Source: Candidatus Moranbacteria bacterium GW2011_GWE2_36_40 (GTDB lineage: Bacteria; Patescibacteriota; Minisyncoccia; Moranbacterales; GWC2-37-73). Taken from it: a stretch of DNA of 55,802 nucleotides. The notes under the pieces were generated by a model. That model worked only from the letters and a program-made list of their open reading frames with translations, had not been told where the DNA came from and did no database searches. The stretch spans positions 1-55,802 of the forward strand of contig LBRX01000005.1 in assembly GCA_000991645.1 (NCBI GenBank). Reading direction: 5' to 3'. Positions 2,415 to 32,968 of this stretch are shown in pieces. Position 1 is the first letter of the stretch; each line of letters begins with the position of its first letter. Both the position numbers and the translations under genes were made by a program.

Positions 2415-5400
2415 ACCAGCACGTGTTCTGTGGTTTTATTGCCGGCTTTGTCAAAGGCTGTCACTGTCACTCCATGAGGTCCTCGTGGAACAAAATTAGG
2501 AATATTGAAGCTGTCTTCTTTAGTTTCACGAACTCTTCCATAGATGGTATATCTATAGTGATCAACTGCTTTGTTATCACTAACTTTCCACCACAACTTG
2601 TCTCCTATTTTCTTTTTGAGTACAGCTGGAATATCTTCAAAAATTGGAGCCTCACTATCGATTTTTATTTTATATTTTTTTGAACCAACTTCATTTCCAT
2701 TTGCATTATAAAAATATAATTTTATTTCATTTGTTTCTCTCAAATCAAATGCGACTTTCCAATTTCCATCTTCATCCAAGGTGTCTGAATCCTCGGTGTC
2801 GCCATCTATTTTAAGTTTAACTTCCCCACCAGCAATATCCTCAATTTTTCCAGCCAATTTAATTTTTTTATTTTTTCTAAAATATGAAGTAACGGATTTG
2901 CTTTCATCATCAAATTCAGCTTTTGGTTTTGGAATATCTATTTCATTATCTCCATCATCTGAAGCTGAATCATCAAGTGGATCATCATCAACTGAAAAAG
3001 AAACTGAGTAATCTGAGTCATTTTTATTTCCAGTCCCATCCGCACATCTAACGTAATATGAATAATTGGTGCCATTATTAAGACCTGTTACCGGAGTTGA
3101 TTGAGAAGTTGATCCAGTTGTTTCAAAAGTATTTGTCATTGAATCATACAAAACCCCTGCTGTTGTTGAATATTTACAAGTTGCATTTTCATTAGTTGTA
3201 ACCATCAATGTTGTTTGTGTTGTTCCAAAATCCAATGTTCCAGAAGGAGAGCCATCAGAAATTGAAGGCGCTGAACCATCAGTAACTTCAAAACTAGTAA
3301 TATCCAATGAAGAAGAGGCATTGTCTGCTGCATCAGTCACAACAATTGTGCAATTTGAATGAGTTCCAACAGAAAGTGTGCCAAAGACTACTGTATTGTT
3401 TCCACTTACTGCAGATGTTGTTGATGAAGAACAGTCTCCACCATAAGTTATTGTTCCAACTTCAGTTGAACTAAAAACATAGCTTGGGGTGTTGTCAGTT
3501 GTTGGAGATGTAATAGGTGTGACCTCAGCAACAGTTGGCGCTGTCACATCAATAGTGAAGCTTGAAACTGCCAGTGGAGTGGAAGCATTTGTGGCTGCGT
3601 CAGTCACTGTGATTATACAATTTGAATATGTTCCAGCCACAAGTGCGTCAAACACAATTGCATTGTTTCCAACAACTGCAGACGTTGTGACAGAAGAACA
3701 ACTTCCTCCATAGGTTATTGTTCCAACCTCAGTCGAGCTAAATGTATAATTCGGTGTTGGATCATTTGTTGGAGTTGTGATAGGAGTGACTTGAGCGAGA
3801 GTTGGCGAGGTTGCTTCAACAGTGAATGTTGTGATGTCGAGTGGAGAAGATGCATTTCCTGATGCATCAGTAACAACAATGGTACAGTTTGAATACGTTG
3901 CATCACTCAGTGTTGCAAAAACAACCGTGTTATTCCCACTTACTGCAGATGTTGTTGCAGATGAACAACTTCCTCCATAAGTTATTGTTCCAACTTCATT
4001 AGAACTGAACACATAGCTTGGGGTTGGATCAGTTGTTGGAGATGTAACAGGTGTGACCTCAGCAACAGTTGGCGCTGTCACATCAATAGTGAAACTTGAA
4101 ACTGCCAGTGGAGTGGAAGCATTTGTGGCTGCGTCAGTCACTGTGATTGTACAATTTGAATATGTGCCAGCCACAAGTGCATCAAAAACAATTGCGTTGT
4201 TTCCAACAACTGCAGCTGTTGTGACAGATGAACAACTGCCTCCATAGGTTATTGTTCCAACTTCAGTCGAGCTAAATGTATAATTTGGTGTTGGATCATT
4301 TGTGGGAGTTGTGACAGGAGTGACTTGAGCGAGAGTTGGCGCGGTTGTGTCAATTGTAAAGGTGGAAACTGCTAATGTGCTACTAGCATTTCCAGCCGCA
4401 TCAGTAACGACAATAGTACAATTTGAATATACACCAGAAGCAAGTGTATTAAACGTTATAATATTATCAGCAGCAATCGCAGATGTTGTTGCAGATGAAC
4501 AACTTCCGCCATATGTTATGGTTCCAACTTCAGTTGAGCTAAATGTATAATTTGGTGTTGTATCTTTTGTTGGAGTTGTGACTGGAGTTACCTGAGCCAA
4601 TGTTGGAGAAACAGAATCTACCGTAAAGCTGGTCACAGCCATTGAAGAAGATGCATTTGAAGACGCATCAGTAACAATAATTGTACAATTTGAATGAGCG
4701 CCTTGAGCCAATGTATTGAAAACCACGGTGTTATTTCCAACTGCCGCTATTGTCGTTGATGAAGAACAATCACCGCCATAAGTTATCAATCCAACTTCAG
4801 TTGAACTGAATGTATAACTTGGAGTTGCATCATTTGTCAGTGCTGCTACAGGAGTTACTTCGGCAACAGTTGGCCCAGTAACATCCGACGGATCAGATAC
4901 AGTTACAACTGCTCCATACAAACCTCCAGTAGCTGTTACATTCACACCTGAATCCCAAACTGCACTACCGCTAGTCAAATTGATAGCAGAATTAATTCCT
5001 GTTGCTAAAGCAGTAAAAGTAAGAGTGGCAACATCTTGTGACCCAACAAGAGCAACTCCAGTAATTCTAGCAGCACCAAAAACAGCAGTGCCGGCAGTTG
5101 TTTCTGGTGGAATACTATTTACCATTTCCACAGGAAATGTCAATGCATTGGTTACGATAGAGTTTAATTGCAACACAGTTGGATCAAATTGAATAGCCAT
5201 ATCAACAGCCCTAACATCAGTATTTGTTCCAGGATTTTCATTAGCAACAACAGTAAAAGTATCCCCGATGTTTATGGTTTGCGGAGCTATTATTAACGAT
5301 AATGTTGCATCCGATGCAGCCATAACCTTATTGCCAGATAAAACAGCTACCAATGAAATCGAAACAATAGCAAAAAACATAGCTATTGAATAAAATTTGA

Positions 5401-6687: not shown

Positions 6688-9297
6688 TCACGGCAGTGTT
6701 GTTGTCCCCGTATTATTATCTGTTTCAGCAGGTGCAACAACTTCAGGAGTCGGTACAGGCAGCTCATCACTAGCCAAATTTTCAGCATTATTTTCAATGC
6801 CGGCAGCAATATTGCTGATCATTTTTTGAATTTTTGTTCTCACTTCATCGTTTTCCTTTGGCAAAAGTTCCAAAACTTTTTGATATTGCGCTGTTGCATC
6901 AGAATTTCTTCTTGTTTTTTCATAAAGAGTTCCCAGTGAGAAAAGCGTGTTTATTTCTTTGTCATTTTTGCTTAAGATATTTTTATAGATTGTCTCAGAA
7001 ATCTTGTAATCTTCTTCATTTCCCCTTGATTGATGAATGCGAGCAGTGTTATAGATATAATTCAAATTATTCTGTTCAATGATCGCTGATTGTTCAATTG
7101 ATTTGATAGCTCCATCCATGTCCCCAAGAACTTCCTGAGCCAAAGCTAACTGATAATGAGCAACCGCCAAATCATTTTTTTCATCAACTGCTTTTTGAAA
7201 AGAGTTTTTTGCTTGACCAAGCAATTCTTTTGCTTCTTCTGGAGTTTTTTTGGCTCCTGCCTGAGCCAATTCAATTTGACCTATCTTTACCCAATAAGCA
7301 GGATTGTGCGGTTCGAGTTCAAGTGCTTTTTTGTAGTTATCCTTGGCGAGATTGAATGAATCAGCAACATACAAACCTGAATTTTCATATATTTGTCCCA
7401 AAGCTTCAACTGCAGCAACATCTTTTGGAGACAAATTTCTTGCCCGATTGACAGTTGAAATTGAATCATTCAAATAATTCTGAATTAATCCCAAATTTCG
7501 ATCTTGCTCAGATTTCAACGCTTCCTCGTTTGCCAAACTCATAAGCTCCTGTCCAAGCAAAATATAATAGCGACTCTCTTTATTGTTCAAAGAAATAGCT
7601 TTTGATAATCTTGTGACACTTCCGTCTGCTGTTATTTTTTGAGCTCGCATAGCTTGACCAGCCCTGAAATCAGCTGCATAAATTTTTCCCACAAAAATGA
7701 ACAGAAAAACAACTCCAGCACTAACAACCATAAAAACAAACGCCAGAGCCAAAGCATATTTCGGAGATGCTTTCAACGATAATGAGAGATAATTCTCTTC
7801 AGATTCGCTTTCAAAAAGAAGCATGGCAACAGTAAGTGCAACAAGCAGGACTCCCAAAATGATCAATGACCCCTCCATTTTTCCTGCAAATGCATTTATG
7901 ATCAAAACAAGAGCTGCTGAAAAAAGTCCCAAAGAATACAGCTTGTTTTTCTGCTTATTTATGCTCAAAAGATACACGCCTATGCTTATGAATGTCAGTA
8001 CCAGCAAAATCAAGGCAATTGTTCCAGCCAAGCCAACTGTTGAAACTGCTTCAAAGAAAATTCCAGCTCCCTGAAAAAATCTCAGATTGTAATATGGATT
8101 TAAGTTAAAATTCTGTGGTTTGTGCAAAGAAAAATCATACCCATACGTTGCAGGTCCACTTCCAACCAACAACTTATCTTTCAATGATTCTTTTGCCACA
8201 TCCAAAGACAATTGATACGAAGGACTAACTTCAACCGGAAGTTTGATGCGAGCGATTGAATTTGAACCAACAATAAGAATTGCCAGAATCAACACAAATG
8301 TTGCCATTGGAAGCCATGTCCAATTTTCAGCAGGACGCACGATTTGAGCCAAGATATAAATCAAGAAAAAGCTTATTCCAACCAGAACACCAAGCCATGC
8401 TATGAATGAATACAGGGTTAACAAAACAAACACATTGAGCAGCAACACTCCAAGCAAACAAGCAGCAGCAACATTTTTCTTCATTCCTGAAATCTTTTTC
8501 TCTTCATCTCTTTTGGCAAAAATATCCAAAACAAAAACAAGAATAATCGGCAGCATGGCACCCAAAAATATTCCCAATCCAGTCAGTGATCCGATCGGGC
8601 TGAGTGGCACATATTGAACAAATTTTTCCGGCACCAAATTCATTCCCAAAAGATTCAACATTGCCCAAAGAGCCAAAACAAAATCAGCTGCAATCAAAAA
8701 ACTTGTCATCAGTAAAAATCTTTTTTTGTTAAAATGACTTGTTATTAAATAATAACTTATTACCAAAGCTGTTATACTCATGAATCCTCGCGAAGGATCT
8801 CCGAAATATCCCCAAAAACTGTGCCAGCGATCAACTGAAAAAAACAAAGATATTCCAAATGTCAGCCAAAGCAAAATAATCGGAATGTCCAATGGAGTTT
8901 TTCTGATCTTCATCTCCCCTGTCAACACACCCTTGGATACCCAAGAAACCAAAGCAAGCAAAATCCAAAAATAGAAATATATTTGTTTTTCAAGAGAAAT
9001 TCCTTGCAAAGTAAGTCCCGTGAAAAAAAGTGGAATACCAAAAAAAAGCGCTGCCAGACTTATCGTAATAATCGAATCCAAAAATCCAATCTTTTTTGAG
9101 GATGTTGTTTTTGTTTCTGACGATTCAACATGCTCTTTCTTGCTTGCAAAAGCACTTTTGAAATGCGTTCCATTGGAGATGGAAATGTTCGCCGACTCTT
9201 TTCGAAATTCAGTAGTATTCGAAGGGTTATTATTAATTGCTACATTTGTCATACCACTGTCTTGATCTGTTTGAGATGATTGATTTTTAAAATCCAT
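6688..9297 (-). CDS. Polytopic membrane protein, O-antigen-ligase (Wzy_C)-like, with C-terminal TPR repeats
   Basis: 869 aa with more than 12 hydrophobic helices across residues ~70-560. The soluble tail has TPR-like repeats (ALGQIYENSGLY..AKDNYKKALELEPHNPAYW, AHYQLALAQEVLGDMDGAIKSIEQS). The family call rests on architecture only. Confidence 0.6.
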   Translation of the reverse strand: MDFKNQSSQTDQDSGMTNVAINNNPSNTTEFRKESANISISNGTHFKSAFASKKEHVESSETKTTSSKKIGFLDSIITISLAALFFGIPLFFTGLTLQGISLEKQIYFYFWILLALVSWVSKGVLTGEMKIRKTPLDIPIILLWLTFGISLFFSVDRWHSFWGYFGDPSRGFMSITALVISYYLITSHFNKKRFLLMTSFLIAADFVLALWAMLNLLGMNLVPEKFVQYVPLSPIGSLTGLGIFLGAMLPIILVFVLDIFAKRDEEKKISGMKKNVAAACLLGVLLLNVFVLLTLYSFIAWLGVLVGISFFLIYILAQIVRPAENWTWLPMATFVLILAILIVGSNSIARIKLPVEVSPSYQLSLDVAKESLKDKLLVGSGPATYGYDFSLHKPQNFNLNPYYNLRFFQGAGIFFEAVSTVGLAGTIALILLVLTFISIGVYLLSINKQKNKLYSLGLFSAALVLIINAFAGKMEGSLIILGVLLVALTVAMLLFESESEENYLSLSLKASPKYALALAFVFMVVSAGVVFLFIFVGKIYAADFRAGQAMRAQKITADGSVTRLSKAISLNNKESRYYILLGQELMSLANEEALKSEQDRNLGLIQNYLNDSISTVNRARNLSPKDVAAVEALGQIYENSGLYVADSFNLAKDNYKKALELEPHNPAYWVKIGQIELAQAGAKKTPEEAKELLGQAKNSFQKAVDEKNDLAVAHYQLALAQEVLGDMDGAIKSIEQSAIIEQNNLNYIYNTARIHQSRGNEEDYKISETIYKNILSKNDKEINTLFSLGTLYEKTRRNSDATAQYQKVLELLPKENDEVRTKIQKMISNIAAGIENNAENLASDELPVPTPEVVAPAETDNNTGTTTLP

Positions 9298-29961: not shown

Positions 29962-30201
29962 TTAATCACATCTGTCTACGAACCCATCGAATTCGATGGA
30001 ATTAAAATTCTTGTTATTAATTCTTTCCCAAAGTCCAAGAAATTCCACGCTTTCGTAGTTTCGCATCCAATTTTGAACAATATAGTCACTTCTTTCAGCG
30101 TCTTTATATCTGGCAATATCGGTCAATGAAATAAAATCCATTTTGTTTTGTTCAAACAAGACAATTTCTGCATTATTAACCTTTATTTTTCTTTTTTGCA
30201 T
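29962..30201 (-). CDS. Short KilA-N-like domain protein
   Basis: 79 aa; ISLTDIARYKD....IVQNWMRNYESVEFLGLWERINN resembles a KilA-N N-terminal region. Confidence 0.5.
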   Translation of the reverse strand: MQKRKIKVNNAEIVLFEQNKMDFISLTDIARYKDAERSDYIVQNWMRNYESVEFLGLWERINNKNFNSIEFDGFVDRCD

Positions 30202-30239
30202 ATTACTATTTTATATTATTTAACACTTTTTTTCAAAGA

Positions 30240-30581
30240 TTATTCAGCCCATTTCAACCAACCTCCAATTTGGTCACCGATGGAAAAAAGATAGTTTTCC
30301 TGCAAATGCACAAAATGCTTTTCGCTCATTGCTTCGATTTCCTGACTCATCCGCAAGCGACATTTTAACTTGTCAAAATCTTTGCTCAACTTTTTAATGG
30401 CTTCAAATTTTTCCTCGTCTTTCAAGTTGTTGATTTCAAAATATTGATCCAAACACTTCCAACACAATATTATGATTTCTTGTCCGATGGTAAATTTGTA
30501 TTCTCTGGGCATGTTGTGCACTGTTTTGTGCAATAATTTAGTCAGCATATAAATTTTGTAATACAAATCTTGATTATTCAT
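30240..30581 (-). CDS. avd: DGR accessory variability determinant (Avd-like four-helix-bundle protein)
   Basis: 113 aa from MNNQDLYYKIYMLTKLLHKTVHNMPREYKFTIGQEI, immediately 3' of the TR. The ORF-track start at 30614 runs into the TR. Confidence 0.7.
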   Translation of the reverse strand: MNNQDLYYKIYMLTKLLHKTVHNMPREYKFTIGQEIIILCWKCLDQYFEINNLKDEEKFEAIKKLSKDFDKLKCRLRMSQEIEAMSEKHFVHLQENYLFSIGDQIGGWLKWAE

Positions 30582-30600
30582 ATGAATATTTGGGATAATT

Positions 30601-30700
30601 ACCCACGGACACACCGAACTGAGTTGGCATTCGTCTTATTGTTGTTGTTCGTGTTACCATCATTGAAATTGACGTTCCATGCGTTCGTGGTGGAGTTCTC
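30601..30700 (-). repeat. DGR template repeat (TR), 3' segment
   Basis: Aligns to VR 32374-32473 with 8 mismatches in 100 nt, all at TR coding-strand adenines. The TR encodes N at each variable codon (AAC/AAT). Confidence 0.9.
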
Positions 30701-30996
30701 CCGCACCTTTTAAACAGCACTATCTATACTTCTTTTTATGCGTCTGATGAGTTGTGCGTAAACTTTTCCAAACTGCTTCAATTTTTTCTCTCTATCACGC
30801 GCTTCAGTTTCTGTTCGATAAACTTCGCAATACACTACAACCAATGGTCTTCTGCACTTTGTTGATAAAACCTTTCCCTCATTATGCTTTTTCAAACGTG
30901 CAACAATACTCACAGTATATCCAATATAAAGTTTATGATCTTTTAGACTTTTTAGGATGTATAGATAATGCATATTTTTCTGTTTAAAAGGTGCGG
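30701..30996 (-). mobile_element. 296-bp TIR element carrying only a GIY-YIG ORF, inserted in the DGR TR
   Basis: Perfect 17-bp terminal inverted repeats: ccgcaccttttaaacag at 30701-30717 and its reverse complement at 30980-30996. Flanked by 8-bp direct repeats gagttctc (30693-30700, 30997-31004), both of which align to VR gagtactc. Confidence 0.75.
30710..30973 (-). CDS. Small GIY-YIG (URI-domain, COG2827-like) nuclease-family protein
   Basis: 87 aa: MHYLYILKSLKDHKLYIGYTVSIVARLKKHNEGK...RRPLVVVYCEVYRTETEARDREKKLKQ. The 25-codon N-terminal extension in the ORF track reads through the TIR and TR. Confidence 0.8.
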   Translation of the reverse strand: MHYLYILKSLKDHKLYIGYTVSIVARLKKHNEGKVLSTKCRRPLVVVYCEVYRTETEARDREKKLKQFGKVYAQLIRRIKRSIDSAV

Positions 30997-31004
30997 GAGT
31001 TCTC

Positions 31005-31035
31005 AGTCTCGGACCAATAGTTGCTAGTACCGAAA
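31005..31035 (-). repeat. DGR TR, 5' segment separated from the rest by the GIY-YIG element
   Basis: Aligns to VR 32474-32504 with 8 mismatches in 31 nt, only 4 of them at TR adenines. Confidence 0.6.
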
Positions 31036-31180
31036 AAAATATTTTCACTCTCTTCTATCATAAACATCAATCTGAATTAAGACCAATGTCGGTTTTTGCC
31101 CCAAAAACTGAGGCGGCGAAAATCGTGGTTATCGCAATATTTCTCTTTGCAAGCATTGCTGCAAAAGCAGACAAAAAAAC

Positions 31181-32320
31181 TCACAAACTCTGGCTGACTA
31201 AATTGATTTTCAAAAAACTATCTAAATATTCAAATTGTTTTGGCAATTTTTCACAAATTTTTTTCCGCAAAACCAAACTGGAACAATGTTTGAAATGACC
31301 GAAGTATGAATTCACAACTGAAACAGTTTTTTTGTCATCCATCAAATTAAAATGCAATTTATTTTTCAATCTTCCCACCACATCATTTTTTACCAAACAA
31401 TGAGTCGGTTTGATAAAATATCCCAAAAAATCAAGCCCCCTTTCCGTCGGCTGCATTTTGGTTTTCTTTTCGTTCAATTTTAATTTCAGATTTGTTTGCA
31501 AAAATTCATTCACAATTTTTGGCAATTGCCGCAATTTTTCCACATCTTCATCAATCACCACAAAATCATCAACATAGCGCAGATATTTTTTTATCTTCAA
31601 TTTCCTTTTTATAAACTGATCCAGCTCATTCATATACAAATTGGCAAAAAATTGTGAAGTGTAATTTCCGATTGGCAAACCCTTGTTTAGAGCTTGACCA
31701 AACATAGATTTGTGAACTGGCACTGATGCAAGCAATTCAAGATCTCCCTTTGTGACAAAATTTTCCTGACAACGATGAAAAATCAGCAATTTTCCAAGCC
31801 AAAGCATTTCAGTTTTCCATTGATTTTGTCTTTGCAATTTTGCAATAAATTTACTGAAGATATCAAACAAAATATTTTTATCAATACTGGTAAAAAAACT
31901 TGAAATATCCATTTTCAAATACCACTCCCTATTTCTCTGCTGATTATTTTTTTTGTTTTTAACAAAAAATTGCAACCTTTTGACAGCCTTTAATGTGCCC
32001 TTGCCTTTTAAGCAGGCATAGCTGTCAAAAACAAAACGATGTGAAGCATATTGAACGATTTCATTGACAAGCAAATGATGCACGATGCGGTCACGAAAAT
32101 CGGCGGCAAAAATTTCACGAATTTTTGGCTTATCAACTGCAAAACAAATTGAGCGACCTGGCACATAGGTTTTGTTTTTGAGTTCGCGAAGCAAAACTCT
32201 CAATTTATTTTCAAAATCAAGTTCAAAATCCAGCGCATTGATCGTCTTTCTCTTGTTTTCGCGACAAGACAAATACGCTTTGAAAATTTTTTCGTATGTG
32301 AAAATTATTGCCATACCCAT
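31181..32320 (-). CDS. DGR reverse transcriptase
   Basis: RT motifs LKMDISSFFTSI, PIGNYTSQFFANLYM (DGR-type SQ motif), RYVDDFVV, GLDFLGY. Sits between the target gene and the TR. Confidence 0.85.
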   Translation of the reverse strand: MGMAIIFTYEKIFKAYLSCRENKRKTINALDFELDFENKLRVLLRELKNKTYVPGRSICFAVDKPKIREIFAADFRDRIVHHLLVNEIVQYASHRFVFDSYACLKGKGTLKAVKRLQFFVKNKKNNQQRNREWYLKMDISSFFTSIDKNILFDIFSKFIAKLQRQNQWKTEMLWLGKLLIFHRCQENFVTKGDLELLASVPVHKSMFGQALNKGLPIGNYTSQFFANLYMNELDQFIKRKLKIKKYLRYVDDFVVIDEDVEKLRQLPKIVNEFLQTNLKLKLNEKKTKMQPTERGLDFLGYFIKPTHCLVKNDVVGRLKNKLHFNLMDDKKTVSVVNSYFGHFKHCSSLVLRKKICEKLPKQFEYLDSFLKINLVSQSL

Positions 32321-32368: not shown

Positions 32369-32968
32369 CTACCACCCACGGACACACCGAACTGAGTAGG
32401 CATTCGTCTTATTGAAGTAGTCCGTGTAACCATCATTGAAATTGACGTTCCATGCGCTCGTGGTGGAGTACTCAGTGGATGACCAATAGAAGGAAGTACC
32501 GAAATTATTGCCGAACGTCGCACGATTAGTGTATAGACATTGCAATTCCGTTTTAGTTGGAAGTCGTCCACCTGCAGCTTTGCACACATCGCGGCCGCAA
32601 TTTGGCTTGTCACAATTTGTGTTGGCTGTTTTCCATTGTTTAGTAGTGGCTTCATTGACTCTTTTGACAATTATATACGCACCATCGCCCAGACTGTTGG
32701 CGCAAGTTGTGTTAAGCGAGCAAAACCAAGTGCCATCGTCGCAAGTTTTGGCAGCCAATTTGACCTCTCCAGCGCCCGTGTCAACATTCACATTCCAAGT
32801 GTTGGCAATCCTGGAAGAATCTGTGAAGCTGTCAATCATTGACTGCGCCAAAGCATATAGCCCGAAAGAAACCATTCCGCCAAAAACGACCGCAACAAAC
32901 ATAATTGATTTTCTTTTTTTTGGATTATTTTTCCAATACTCCTTCAATTTTTCTTTTATTTTTTTCAT
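32369..32968 (-). CDS. DGR variable (target) protein, membrane-anchored, C-terminal DUF1566/C-type-lectin-fold domain
   Basis: TM segment IMFVAVVFGGMVSFGLYAL. C-terminus GRLPTKTELQCLY...FYWSSTEYSTTSAWNVNFNDGYTDYFNKTNAYSVRCVRGW. Confidence 0.85.
   Translation of the reverse strand: MKKIKEKLKEYWKNNPKKRKSIMFVAVVFGGMVSFGLYALAQSMIDSFTDSSRIANTWNVNVDTGAGEVKLAAKTCDDGTWFCSLNTTCANSLGDGAYIIVKRVNEATTKQWKTANTNCDKPNCGRDVCKAAGGRLPTKTELQCLYTNRATFGNNFGTSFYWSSTEYSTTSAWNVNFNDGYTDYFNKTNAYSVRCVRGW
32374..32504 (-). repeat. DGR variable repeat (VR)
   Basis: Homologous to TR 30601-30700 plus 31005-31035. The last 3' codons are CVRGW-stop. Confidence 0.85.

Follow-up and report, generated by a model that had tools for sequence, protein, structure and literature searches.

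The DNA analysed here (the window, 55,802 nt; contig LBRX01000005.1, positions 1-55,802, of Candidatus Moranbacteria bacterium GW2011_GWE2_36_40) contains a diversity-generating retroelement (DGR) whose template repeat (TR) is interrupted by a 300-bp element that encodes a GIY-YIG nuclease-like protein. The DGR is canonical and lies on the minus strand in the order Lcl_C-type target gene, reverse transcriptase (RT) gene, TR and bAvd. The element is bounded by terminal inverted repeats (TIRs) and flanked by a target-site duplication (TSD), and separates the TR into two segments that align with the variable repeat (VR) at the 3′ end of the target gene. Other loci used for comparison are designated by L-numbers, L001-L008 being sister contigs of the window locus. 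The features of the window, with the open reading frames (ORFs) concerned, are as follows.

30699..30998, minus strand: complete GIY-YIG hairpin-ended element, 300 bp (family-wide TIR/TSD analysis; excision restores the TR)
30980..30998, minus strand: TIR at the element's 5′ end as read along the gene, TCCCGCACCTTTTAAACAG, the perfect complement of the second TIR
30699..30717, minus strand: TIR at the 3′ end of the element, holding the ORF stop codon TAA (inverted-repeat and ORF analysis)
30999..31002, minus strand: TSD copy 1, GAAC on the gene strand, GTTC on the plus strand (family TSD analysis; empty sites)
30695..30698, minus strand: TSD copy 2, GAAC on the gene strand, GTTC on the plus strand (family TSD analysis; empty sites)
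30710..30973, minus strand: GIY-YIG nuclease ORF, 87 aa, UPF0213/Slx1-like branch (Pfam PF01541)
30999..31035, minus strand: TR 5′ segment, 37 nt, separated from the remaining TR by the insertion (five A-type and four non-A differences from the VR)
30601..30698, minus strand: TR 3′ segment, 98 nt including a GAAC copy, probably the still-functional template (7/7 differences from the VR at TR adenines)
32374..32504, minus strand: VR, at the 3′ end of the Lcl_C-type target gene (TR/VR alignment)
32968..32369, minus strand: Lcl_C-type target gene of the DGR, carrying the VR
31181..32320, minus strand: DGR RT (Pfam RVT_1, E = 1e-22)
30240..30614, minus strand: ORF of the accessory protein bAvd (Pfam bAvd PF22296, E = 2.6e-12)

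Anatomy of the inserted element

The local alignment between the 3′ end of the target gene and the RT-Avd spacer halted at the insert. When positions 30699-31002 (the insert and one repeat copy) were excised, a colinear TR/VR alignment of 131 nt was obtained, with 37 nt more aligned upstream. The window holds just two copies of the 17-nt inverted repeat CCGCACCTTTTAAACAG, at 30701-30717 and 30980-30996, both without mismatch, and with up to three mismatches allowed at least two matches were seen in 0 of 100 shuffles; no further element copies or solo TIRs were found within the window. The octamer GAGTTCTC is present at both insert ends. An earlier note on this DNA had taken the octamer for an 8-bp TSD and had given the element as 296 bp. 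The perfect 17-nt repeats which it reported are there, but comparison across the family gave a 19-bp TIR, a 4-bp TSD and a length of 300 bp. The window TIR consists of YCCCGCACCTTT followed by seven variable, complementary bases, its outer 12 nt being the family-wide core, and the octamer breaks down as GA-GAAC-[TC...element...GA]-GAAC-TC, four of its bases being the TSD, two (TC/GA) the outer tip of the TIR and two target sequence that matches by coincidence. An 8-bp TSD fits only one of 84 non-redundant elements, the window's own, and, outside those 84, L193, which has the same TC/GA TIR termini at the same target. In the predicted RNA fold of the TR transcript the TIR stem dominates (z = -4.5), forming a perfect duplex of 19-25 bp.

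Could the inverted repeat be a chance one, or the segment a native part of the RT-Avd spacer, with no insertion at all? All eight assemblies of the organism carry the element, and nothing further speaks for this explanation, which is refuted and keeps practically no probability given that no shuffle contained two TIR hits, that related DGRs with the same gene order lack exactly 304 bp, and that the same element occurs in dozens of unrelated contexts. An intron or known RNA motif was also considered, and no Rfam hit was obtained at E ≤ 1 in window positions 30200-31400.

Evidence of mobility

The same DGR, without a GIY-YIG gene, is present in the three relatives nearest by RT (pairwise identity 71%, 67% and 60%). 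At L187 and L190 (RT 67-71% identical) the window's gene order is found together with a TR that is colinear with the window's excised TR, holds a single GAGAACTC (the uninterrupted form which the earlier note had proposed to look for in relatives), and lacks exactly the 304 bp found in the window TR. The empty TR site reads ...ACTGAGAACTCCACC.... Conversely, near-identical elements were found in diverged surroundings. The elements of L107 and L193 are identical at 297 of 299 nt (99.3%) and occupy the same GAAC site, whereas 17 of 126 nt of flanking TR are mismatched, identity over the 40 nt upstream is about 68%, and the genes are arranged in different orders. The elements of L009 and L014 are identical over 311/311 nt, with TRs 82-88% identical. 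In both pairs the similarity drops precisely where the TIRs end, the flanks differing by 12-30%. The empty sites and the near-identical copies in diverged flanks show that this is a mobile element and, together with the TIRs and the excised alignment, bear out the earlier description of a GIY-YIG-only, TIR- and TSD-bounded mobile insertion inside a DGR TR. The mobility implied by the term "cut-and-paste", used in that description, is likewise shown by these comparisons; the cut-and-paste chemistry itself is putative. Synonymous divergence (dS) was tried as a clock for recent spread among divergent DGR copies and proved saturated; the near-identical pairs answered the question instead.

Movement might also occur by homing, in which the GIY-YIG protein would cut an empty TR and the element would be copied in from an occupied TR by double-strand-break repair. 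GIY-YIG is a classic homing-endonuclease fold (PMC1564403), the same TR position, GA/GAAC/TC, is filled in the window, L009, L107 and L193 (RTs about 50% identical) with closer relatives empty, and the TRs of these DGRs are alike enough for recombination. Homing is nevertheless unlikely, as it neither creates nor needs the conserved TIRs and the TSD, and as no co-conversion tract is seen, identity going from above 99% to about 70-90% right at the TIR boundaries. Moreover, insertions also occur at two further TR positions and at many unrelated sites, the protein has no NUMOD-type DNA-binding extension and a fold nearer to Slx1 than to I-TevI, and no intron signature is found in Rfam.

A family of hairpin-ended elements

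The element belongs to a large family across Patescibacteria and several other phyla. Protein homologues that are 75-83% identical lie in other DGRs, and those that are 54-62% identical lie between pilin genes, beside an NAD synthase gene and between ORF6N genes; all of these, in DGRs and in unrelated places, are bounded by the TIR core CCCCGCACCTTT.../...AAAGGTGCGGGG. The idea that homologues elsewhere might be TIR-flanked thus holds at 54-83% identity, but not for homologues below 50% identity, which are mostly without TIRs. A pattern scan (CCCGCACCTTT-N260-290-AAAGGTGCGGG) of the GTDB species-representative genomes returned 77 complete elements at 75 loci, so that TIR copies outside the window, whose search had been proposed earlier, are plentiful. 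Most of the elements are from Patescibacteria, and others from Omnitrophota, Planctomycetota, Bdellovibrionales, Gammaproteobacteria, Elusimicrobia and WOR-3; the same scan of a viral contig collection gave none. Copies 86-90% identical were seen at different sites of single genomes, and ORF-less hairpin derivatives of 26-141 nt share the same stem base.

The TIR core is conserved in more than 100 copies. The lengths of TIR and TSD were derived from the 84 non-redundant elements, for which the best model is a 19-nt TIR starting Y-CCCGCACC and a flanking 4-bp direct repeat. This repeat is perfect in 35 of the 84 elements, compared with about 6 expected by chance, and has one mismatch in 11 more; a few elements look as if they had a 3- or 5-bp TSD. 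At TIR positions 13-19 all four Watson-Crick pair types occur and yet 74-94% of the elements are paired, with pairing collapsing at position 20. Since these positions vary but stay complementary, the TIR ends are selected as a stem.

The GIY-YIG protein

The 87-aa ORF, with its stop codon in the TIR as noticed earlier (TAA in 30699-30717), matched the Pfam GIY-YIG model PF01541 (E = 6e-15, 55.7 bits, cut-off 22.6), so the earlier family assignment holds in a profile search; no match was obtained to NCBIfam, PHROG or PADLOC models. Origin as a phage homing gene or a defence gene was set aside, since PHROG and PADLOC searches were negative and viral contigs yielded no element. Residues Y5, Y16, G18, R26, H30, N31 and E62 are invariant across 30 homologues, and the catalytic Tyr of GIY, the Tyr of YIG, the Arg, the His and the metal-binding Glu are all kept. 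Sequence matches in the PDB were to the UPF0213 proteins EF2693 (1ywl) and BH0048 (1zg2), with E = 2e-6 to 8e-6. The AlphaFold (AF2) model (mean confidence, pLDDT, 87) comprises the core domain and one helix, and a Foldseek search with it returned BH0048 first and then Slx1 nuclease domains (TM score 0.62-0.68, rmsd 1.5-2.2 Å), with I-TevI (TM 0.51) and UvrC (TM 0.48) lower. Sequence and model thus place the protein closest to the Slx1/UPF0213 branch, not to the UvrC/homing-endonuclease branch. Slx1 is a structure-specific nuclease that acts on branched and hairpin DNA, and the likeness would fit an enzyme acting at the base of the TIR stem.

Among the DGR-borne copies the nonsynonymous divergence (dN) is 0.14-0.18 and dS is saturated, so that dN/dS is well below 1, implying that the protein is maintained by purifying selection. 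No recognised transposase class (DDE, DEDD, HUH, Ser, Tyr or Cas1) is encoded in the element, the GIY-YIG gene being its sole ORF. The exact 87-aa protein of the window was found only at the same locus, in eight other groundwater assemblies.

Insertion sites across the family

The commonest TSD is TTGA (18 of 35). At 14 of the 18 TTGA insertions the pattern TTGAnn-N16-18-TAnnnT stands directly at the right end, compared with 2.0 in shuffles and 1-5 at control spacings. These sites, seen in the right flanks of L023, L039, L043, L047, L050, L053, L060, L061, L064, L077, L080, L094, L096 and L099, are sigma-70-type promoters of the form TTGA/CA-N17-TATAAT. Judged from this pattern, the element is placed exactly in the promoter -35 hexamer, with the 4-bp TSD rebuilding TTGACA, and the left TSD copy joined to the TIR gives TTGACC upstream of the GIY-YIG ORF. 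The target logo is approximately GGGR-TTRA-C, similar to the right junction of the element itself. Some elements directly adjoin a further TIR end, e.g. GGTGCGGGA-TGAA-[TCCCGC...] (L104 at about 840-1160, L055 at 7100-7500 and the right flank of L053), suggesting insertion beside, or nesting in, earlier copies, which is consistent with a target that resembles the right junction. An IS608-style guide, with the inner TIR covarying simply with the target tetranucleotide, was looked for by eye and was not evident.

Other copies lie in genes for structured RNAs. Copies in 16S rRNA genes (two sites) are L048 6390-6689, L062 1226-1524, L032 1341-1629 and L069 2939-3249, those in 23S rRNA genes (three sites) are L075 6235-6538 and L051 2613-2916 and 4552-4851, and a copy at the P3 position of an RNase P RNA gene, confirmed with Rfam, is L034 328-628. 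The conserved right flank GAGGAAAGTCCG points to further RNase P RNA copies in L046, L089 and L095. The structured-RNA copies are in sense orientation in 7/7 readable cases (all those listed by position except L051 2613-2916). A common theme of the family's sites is that a long stem-loop is harmless there and transcribed, and the GIY-YIG/TIR family may explain some of the unexplained insertions in rRNA genes of candidate phyla radiation (CPR) bacteria.

Such sites bring to mind an RNA-level intervening sequence, the stem being cleaved from transcripts in the manner of RNase III and the element spreading through RNA or cDNA intermediates. The co-oriented rRNA and RNase P RNA copies without TSDs, the perfect 19-25 bp RNA duplex, the covariation of the inner stem and the RT encoded next door in DGRs would all suit it. 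This explanation is nonetheless very improbable, as 4-bp TSDs at DNA sites such as -35 boxes are a signature of DNA integration, and as cDNA made by a DGR RT would bear adenine mutagenesis, yet the copies are 99-100% identical. RNA processing is compatible with a DNA transposon; it accounts for tolerance of the insertion, not for mobility.

Several further observations were made at these sites. In L062 an Rfam group I intron match (2833-3620, 66.9 bits) overlaps the 3′ end of the 16S rRNA gene that carries the GIY-YIG element. A right flank GAAAGGTCG(A/G)G is common to L042 7051-7119, L057 210-504, L065 2631-2931 and L073 2242-2532, where it is adjoined by a full element or a hairpin-only copy, and suggests a conserved host RNA or site; it was considered as an RNase P variant, and no Rfam match was found in the gathering-threshold scan of L057, L065 and L073 or in scans of L073 and L042 at E ≤ 0.1. 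L019 (1156-2899) has ORF6N-domain genes in alternation with two elements that are 82% identical to each other; the second of these genes overlaps both elements, and the insertions may have split or fused ORFs.

A lineage that occupies DGR template repeats

Elements were found at seven DGR loci (the window, L009, L014, L015, L017, L107/L108 and L193), in 7/7 co-oriented with the TR and placed in its 5′ third or at its 5′ edge. Five of these insertions are at GA/GAAC/TC, representing at most four independent lineages as L009 and L014 carry identical copies; of the other two, one lies 14 nt upstream at CTGG and one at the TR 5′ boundary. Neighbour-joining analysis of 75 unique proteins encoded by TIR-bounded elements (those of L014 and L009 being the same) placed the six DGR-borne sequences in an exclusive clade. 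The RTs of the occupied DGRs are only about 50% identical to one another and closer RT relatives are empty, so that this lineage must have invaded TRs repeatedly, with one site strongly preferred. In the GTDB genome scan 1 of 77 elements was in a TR, indicating that the TR habit is specific to one lineage. The earlier view of the TR as an unusual landing site is not borne out by these seven loci and the exclusive clade; the TR is the preferred habitat of this lineage and no accidental target.

Exclusivity to TRs, constant co-orientation with the TR and strong purifying selection with saturated dS are also what would be seen if the element were a domesticated DGR component, the nuclease and/or the hairpin serving the DGR, for example by nicking the structured target formed by the VR and the initiation of mutagenic homing (IMH) sequence for cDNA integration or by defining the 5′ end of the template. 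Slx1-type nucleases do cut branched or hairpin DNA (PDB matches 6sei and 7cq4). Domestication is, however, quite improbable. The element is absent from the three closest RT relatives examined, and the nearest DGR relatives (RT 57-71% identical) work without it, their TR/VR pairs displaying clean A-only mutagenesis. Sister elements reside in promoters and rRNA genes with no DGR nearby, and near-identical copies move between different DGRs.

Two more distant family members (L061 3458-3759 and L077 6066-6366; 49-55% identity, TTGA TSD) stand beside other DGR RT/Avd genes and fall outside the TR-specific clade. In L017, whose TR also carries an element, an IS200/IS605-type Y1 transposase gene (241-870) lies directly upstream of the DGR target gene.

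Effect of the insertion on the DGR

In the window, 7/7 TR/VR differences downstream of the insert are at TR adenines, whereas the differences upstream comprise five of A type and four of non-A type. The counts were pooled over five occupied loci and compared with three empty-site relatives. Non-A differences amounted to 10/129 upstream of the insertions, 7/314 downstream and 0/88 upstream in the empty-site relatives, and Fisher tests gave p = 0.011 and 0.006 for the two contrasts. We infer that faithful transfer to the VR has been lost for the TR segment lying 5′ of the insert and that the 98 nt on the 3′ side still act as a template; the usable TR appears to be shortened by the insertion, with the DGR not inactivated. 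In the Bordetella DGR, cDNA synthesis begins at the 3′ side of the TR and 5′ integration needs only local homology, so a loss of copying that is confined to the upstream TR fits established DGR biology. The TIR stem is a plausible RT roadblock or processing site, as judged from the predicted fold. As to co-transcription with the TR, proposed earlier, it is likely, the ORF being always co-oriented, but the upstream part of the TR is apparently not faithfully copied into the VR.

Other features of the DGR are as follows. The DGR RT of the window has thousands of homologues in CPR bacteria. Translation of bAvd probably starts further downstream than the listed GTG, the gene being called at 90 aa in sister contigs, and a KilA-N protein and a giant LamG protein are encoded downstream of bAvd. 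In the spacer between the RT stop codon and the TR (window 31036-31180, minus strand) a strongly conserved block AATGCGATAACCACGATTTTCNCCGCC is followed by a small hairpin; alignment found the block also in related DGRs (L187 3628-3790 and L190 3202-3380), and the two together are possibly a structural or priming element of the DGR RNA. The sister contigs L001-L008 end within or just upstream of the VR, breaks that are typical of assembly at TR/VR repeats or of VR microdiversity in the population.

Comparison with known systems

In its anatomy the element is a TIR/TSD transposon of the insertion sequence or miniature inverted-repeat transposable element (MITE) kind, in which no known transposase class was recognised. 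It shares with these TIRs, a short TSD, several copies per genome, empty sites and ORF-less derivatives. Unlike in insertion sequences, the only protein is GIY-YIG and not a DDE, DEDD, HUH, serine or tyrosine enzyme, and, unlike in either kind, the inner TIR covaries as a stem and insertion is precise in -35 boxes and structured-RNA genes. To our knowledge, 300 bp is far below the size of known insertion sequences. The REP/RAYT (REPIN) system is similar in that inverted palindromic repeats enclose a nuclease gene and further palindromic copies, lacking the gene, are scattered in the vicinity; RAYTs, however, are HUH Y1 enzymes, usually single-copy and domesticated and without TSD, in contrast to the multi-copy GIY-YIG unit with 4-bp TSDs. 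GIY-YIG homing genes (I-TevI, Seg/Mob and I-BmoI) belong to the same nuclease superfamily and are selfish, and the DGR lineage likewise re-uses one target site, but here there is no intron, DNA-binding extension, PHROG match or co-conversion of flanks, and there are TIRs and a TSD. The intervening sequences (IVSs) of rRNA genes are, like the sense-oriented family members in 16S and 23S genes, stem-loop insertions in rRNA helices, and as their hosts are structured RNA genes, so the window copy lies in a TR, also a non-coding RNA template. We know of no IVS that acts as a TSD-making transposon with a conserved nuclease gene and termini across phyla.

Proteins of the UPF0213/COG2827/YhbQ type have the same minimal GIY-YIG domain of about 85-100 aa and share the catalytic residues, but they have been described as vertical genes (PMC1564403), not as cargo of TIR-bounded mobile units as here. 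The same phylogenomic survey, of 2006, treated the prokaryotic Slx1-like stand-alone GIY-YIG proteins as vertically inherited and repair-type, with function unknown (PMC1564403), and neither GIY-YIG genes nor interrupted TRs are mentioned in two large surveys of DGRs (PMC5758913, PMC8144416). In line with the earlier note, which knew of no small stand-alone GIY-YIG protein described as an autonomous TIR-bounded element, no prior description of TIR/TSD elements encoding GIY-YIG was found in an incomplete literature search, the papers retrieved being, by their titles and the first lines of their abstracts, on other subjects, mostly eukaryotic transposons, so that an earlier description is possible.

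A model for the element and its wider meaning

Mobility, the TIR/TSD anatomy, the target preferences, purifying selection and an intact catalytic motif are established. Taken together with the effect on the TR, we consider it likely that the element is a self-contained miniature DNA transposon, with 19-bp TIRs that pair into a long stem, an Slx1-like GIY-YIG gene in the loop and a 4-bp TSD, and that the DGR is kept functional. In the mechanism that we propose, the GIY-YIG protein would be the presumptive transposase, a nuclease of the structure-specific type that recognises the TIR ends or the base of the hairpin. It would cut with a 4-nt stagger, both at the ends of the element and at target sites similar to GGR-N4-Y, and the gaps would be filled by host repair. 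Family members sit where harm is small and transcription occurs, i.e. in -35 boxes, in rRNA/RNase P helices and in DGR TRs, the DGR lineage in the 5′ third of the TR and preferentially at GA/GAAC/TC. There the ORF, co-oriented with the TR, would probably be expressed from the TR transcript, and the 19-25 bp stem would probably halt cDNA synthesis or be removed from the RNA by processing. Homogenisation of the VR would then continue solely from the 98-nt TR segment 3′ of the insert, and the 37-nt 5′ segment would drift, the DGR remaining functional.

Several points weigh against this model. Neither a DNA-binding nor a transposase domain can be recognised in the 87-aa protein, and no NCBIfam model matched it; its nuclease and transposition activities are predicted, and a host or trans-acting factor may be what moves the element. 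The copies in rRNA and RNase P RNA genes have no TSD, and a second integration route may therefore exist. A-type differences are equally frequent upstream (13/47) and downstream (49/164) of the insertions, and mutagenic transfer of the upstream segment may not have stopped. Finally, the VR, compared as a sign of DGR activity across the insert, is identical in all eight sampled assemblies of the organism, so that current DGR activity is putative.

We advance more tentatively, with confidence a little short of even, the wider proposal that GIY-YIG proteins of the Slx1-like kind act as transposases for a new class of prokaryotic DNA transposons, about 300 bp long, whose hairpin-forming ends are recognised by their structure. 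One lineage of these would have evolved site-specific homing to the DGR TR, where it is carried along on the TR transcript and determines how far mutagenic retrohoming extends on the 5′ side. The chance that this is a new transposase class is substantial. If the GIY-YIG protein does move the element, a nuclease fold would be added to the short list of transposase chemistries, and the size of 300 bp would make the element attractive for mechanistic and engineering work; it would be about the smallest autonomous transposon known to us. DGR finders that need contiguous TR/VR alignments will mis-call or truncate interrupted TRs, and occupied and empty TRs provide a natural experiment on the extent of cDNA synthesis and VR replacement. 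The landing sites of the family are strikingly benign and show by what means parasites can last in CPR bacteria, with their tiny, gene-dense genomes.

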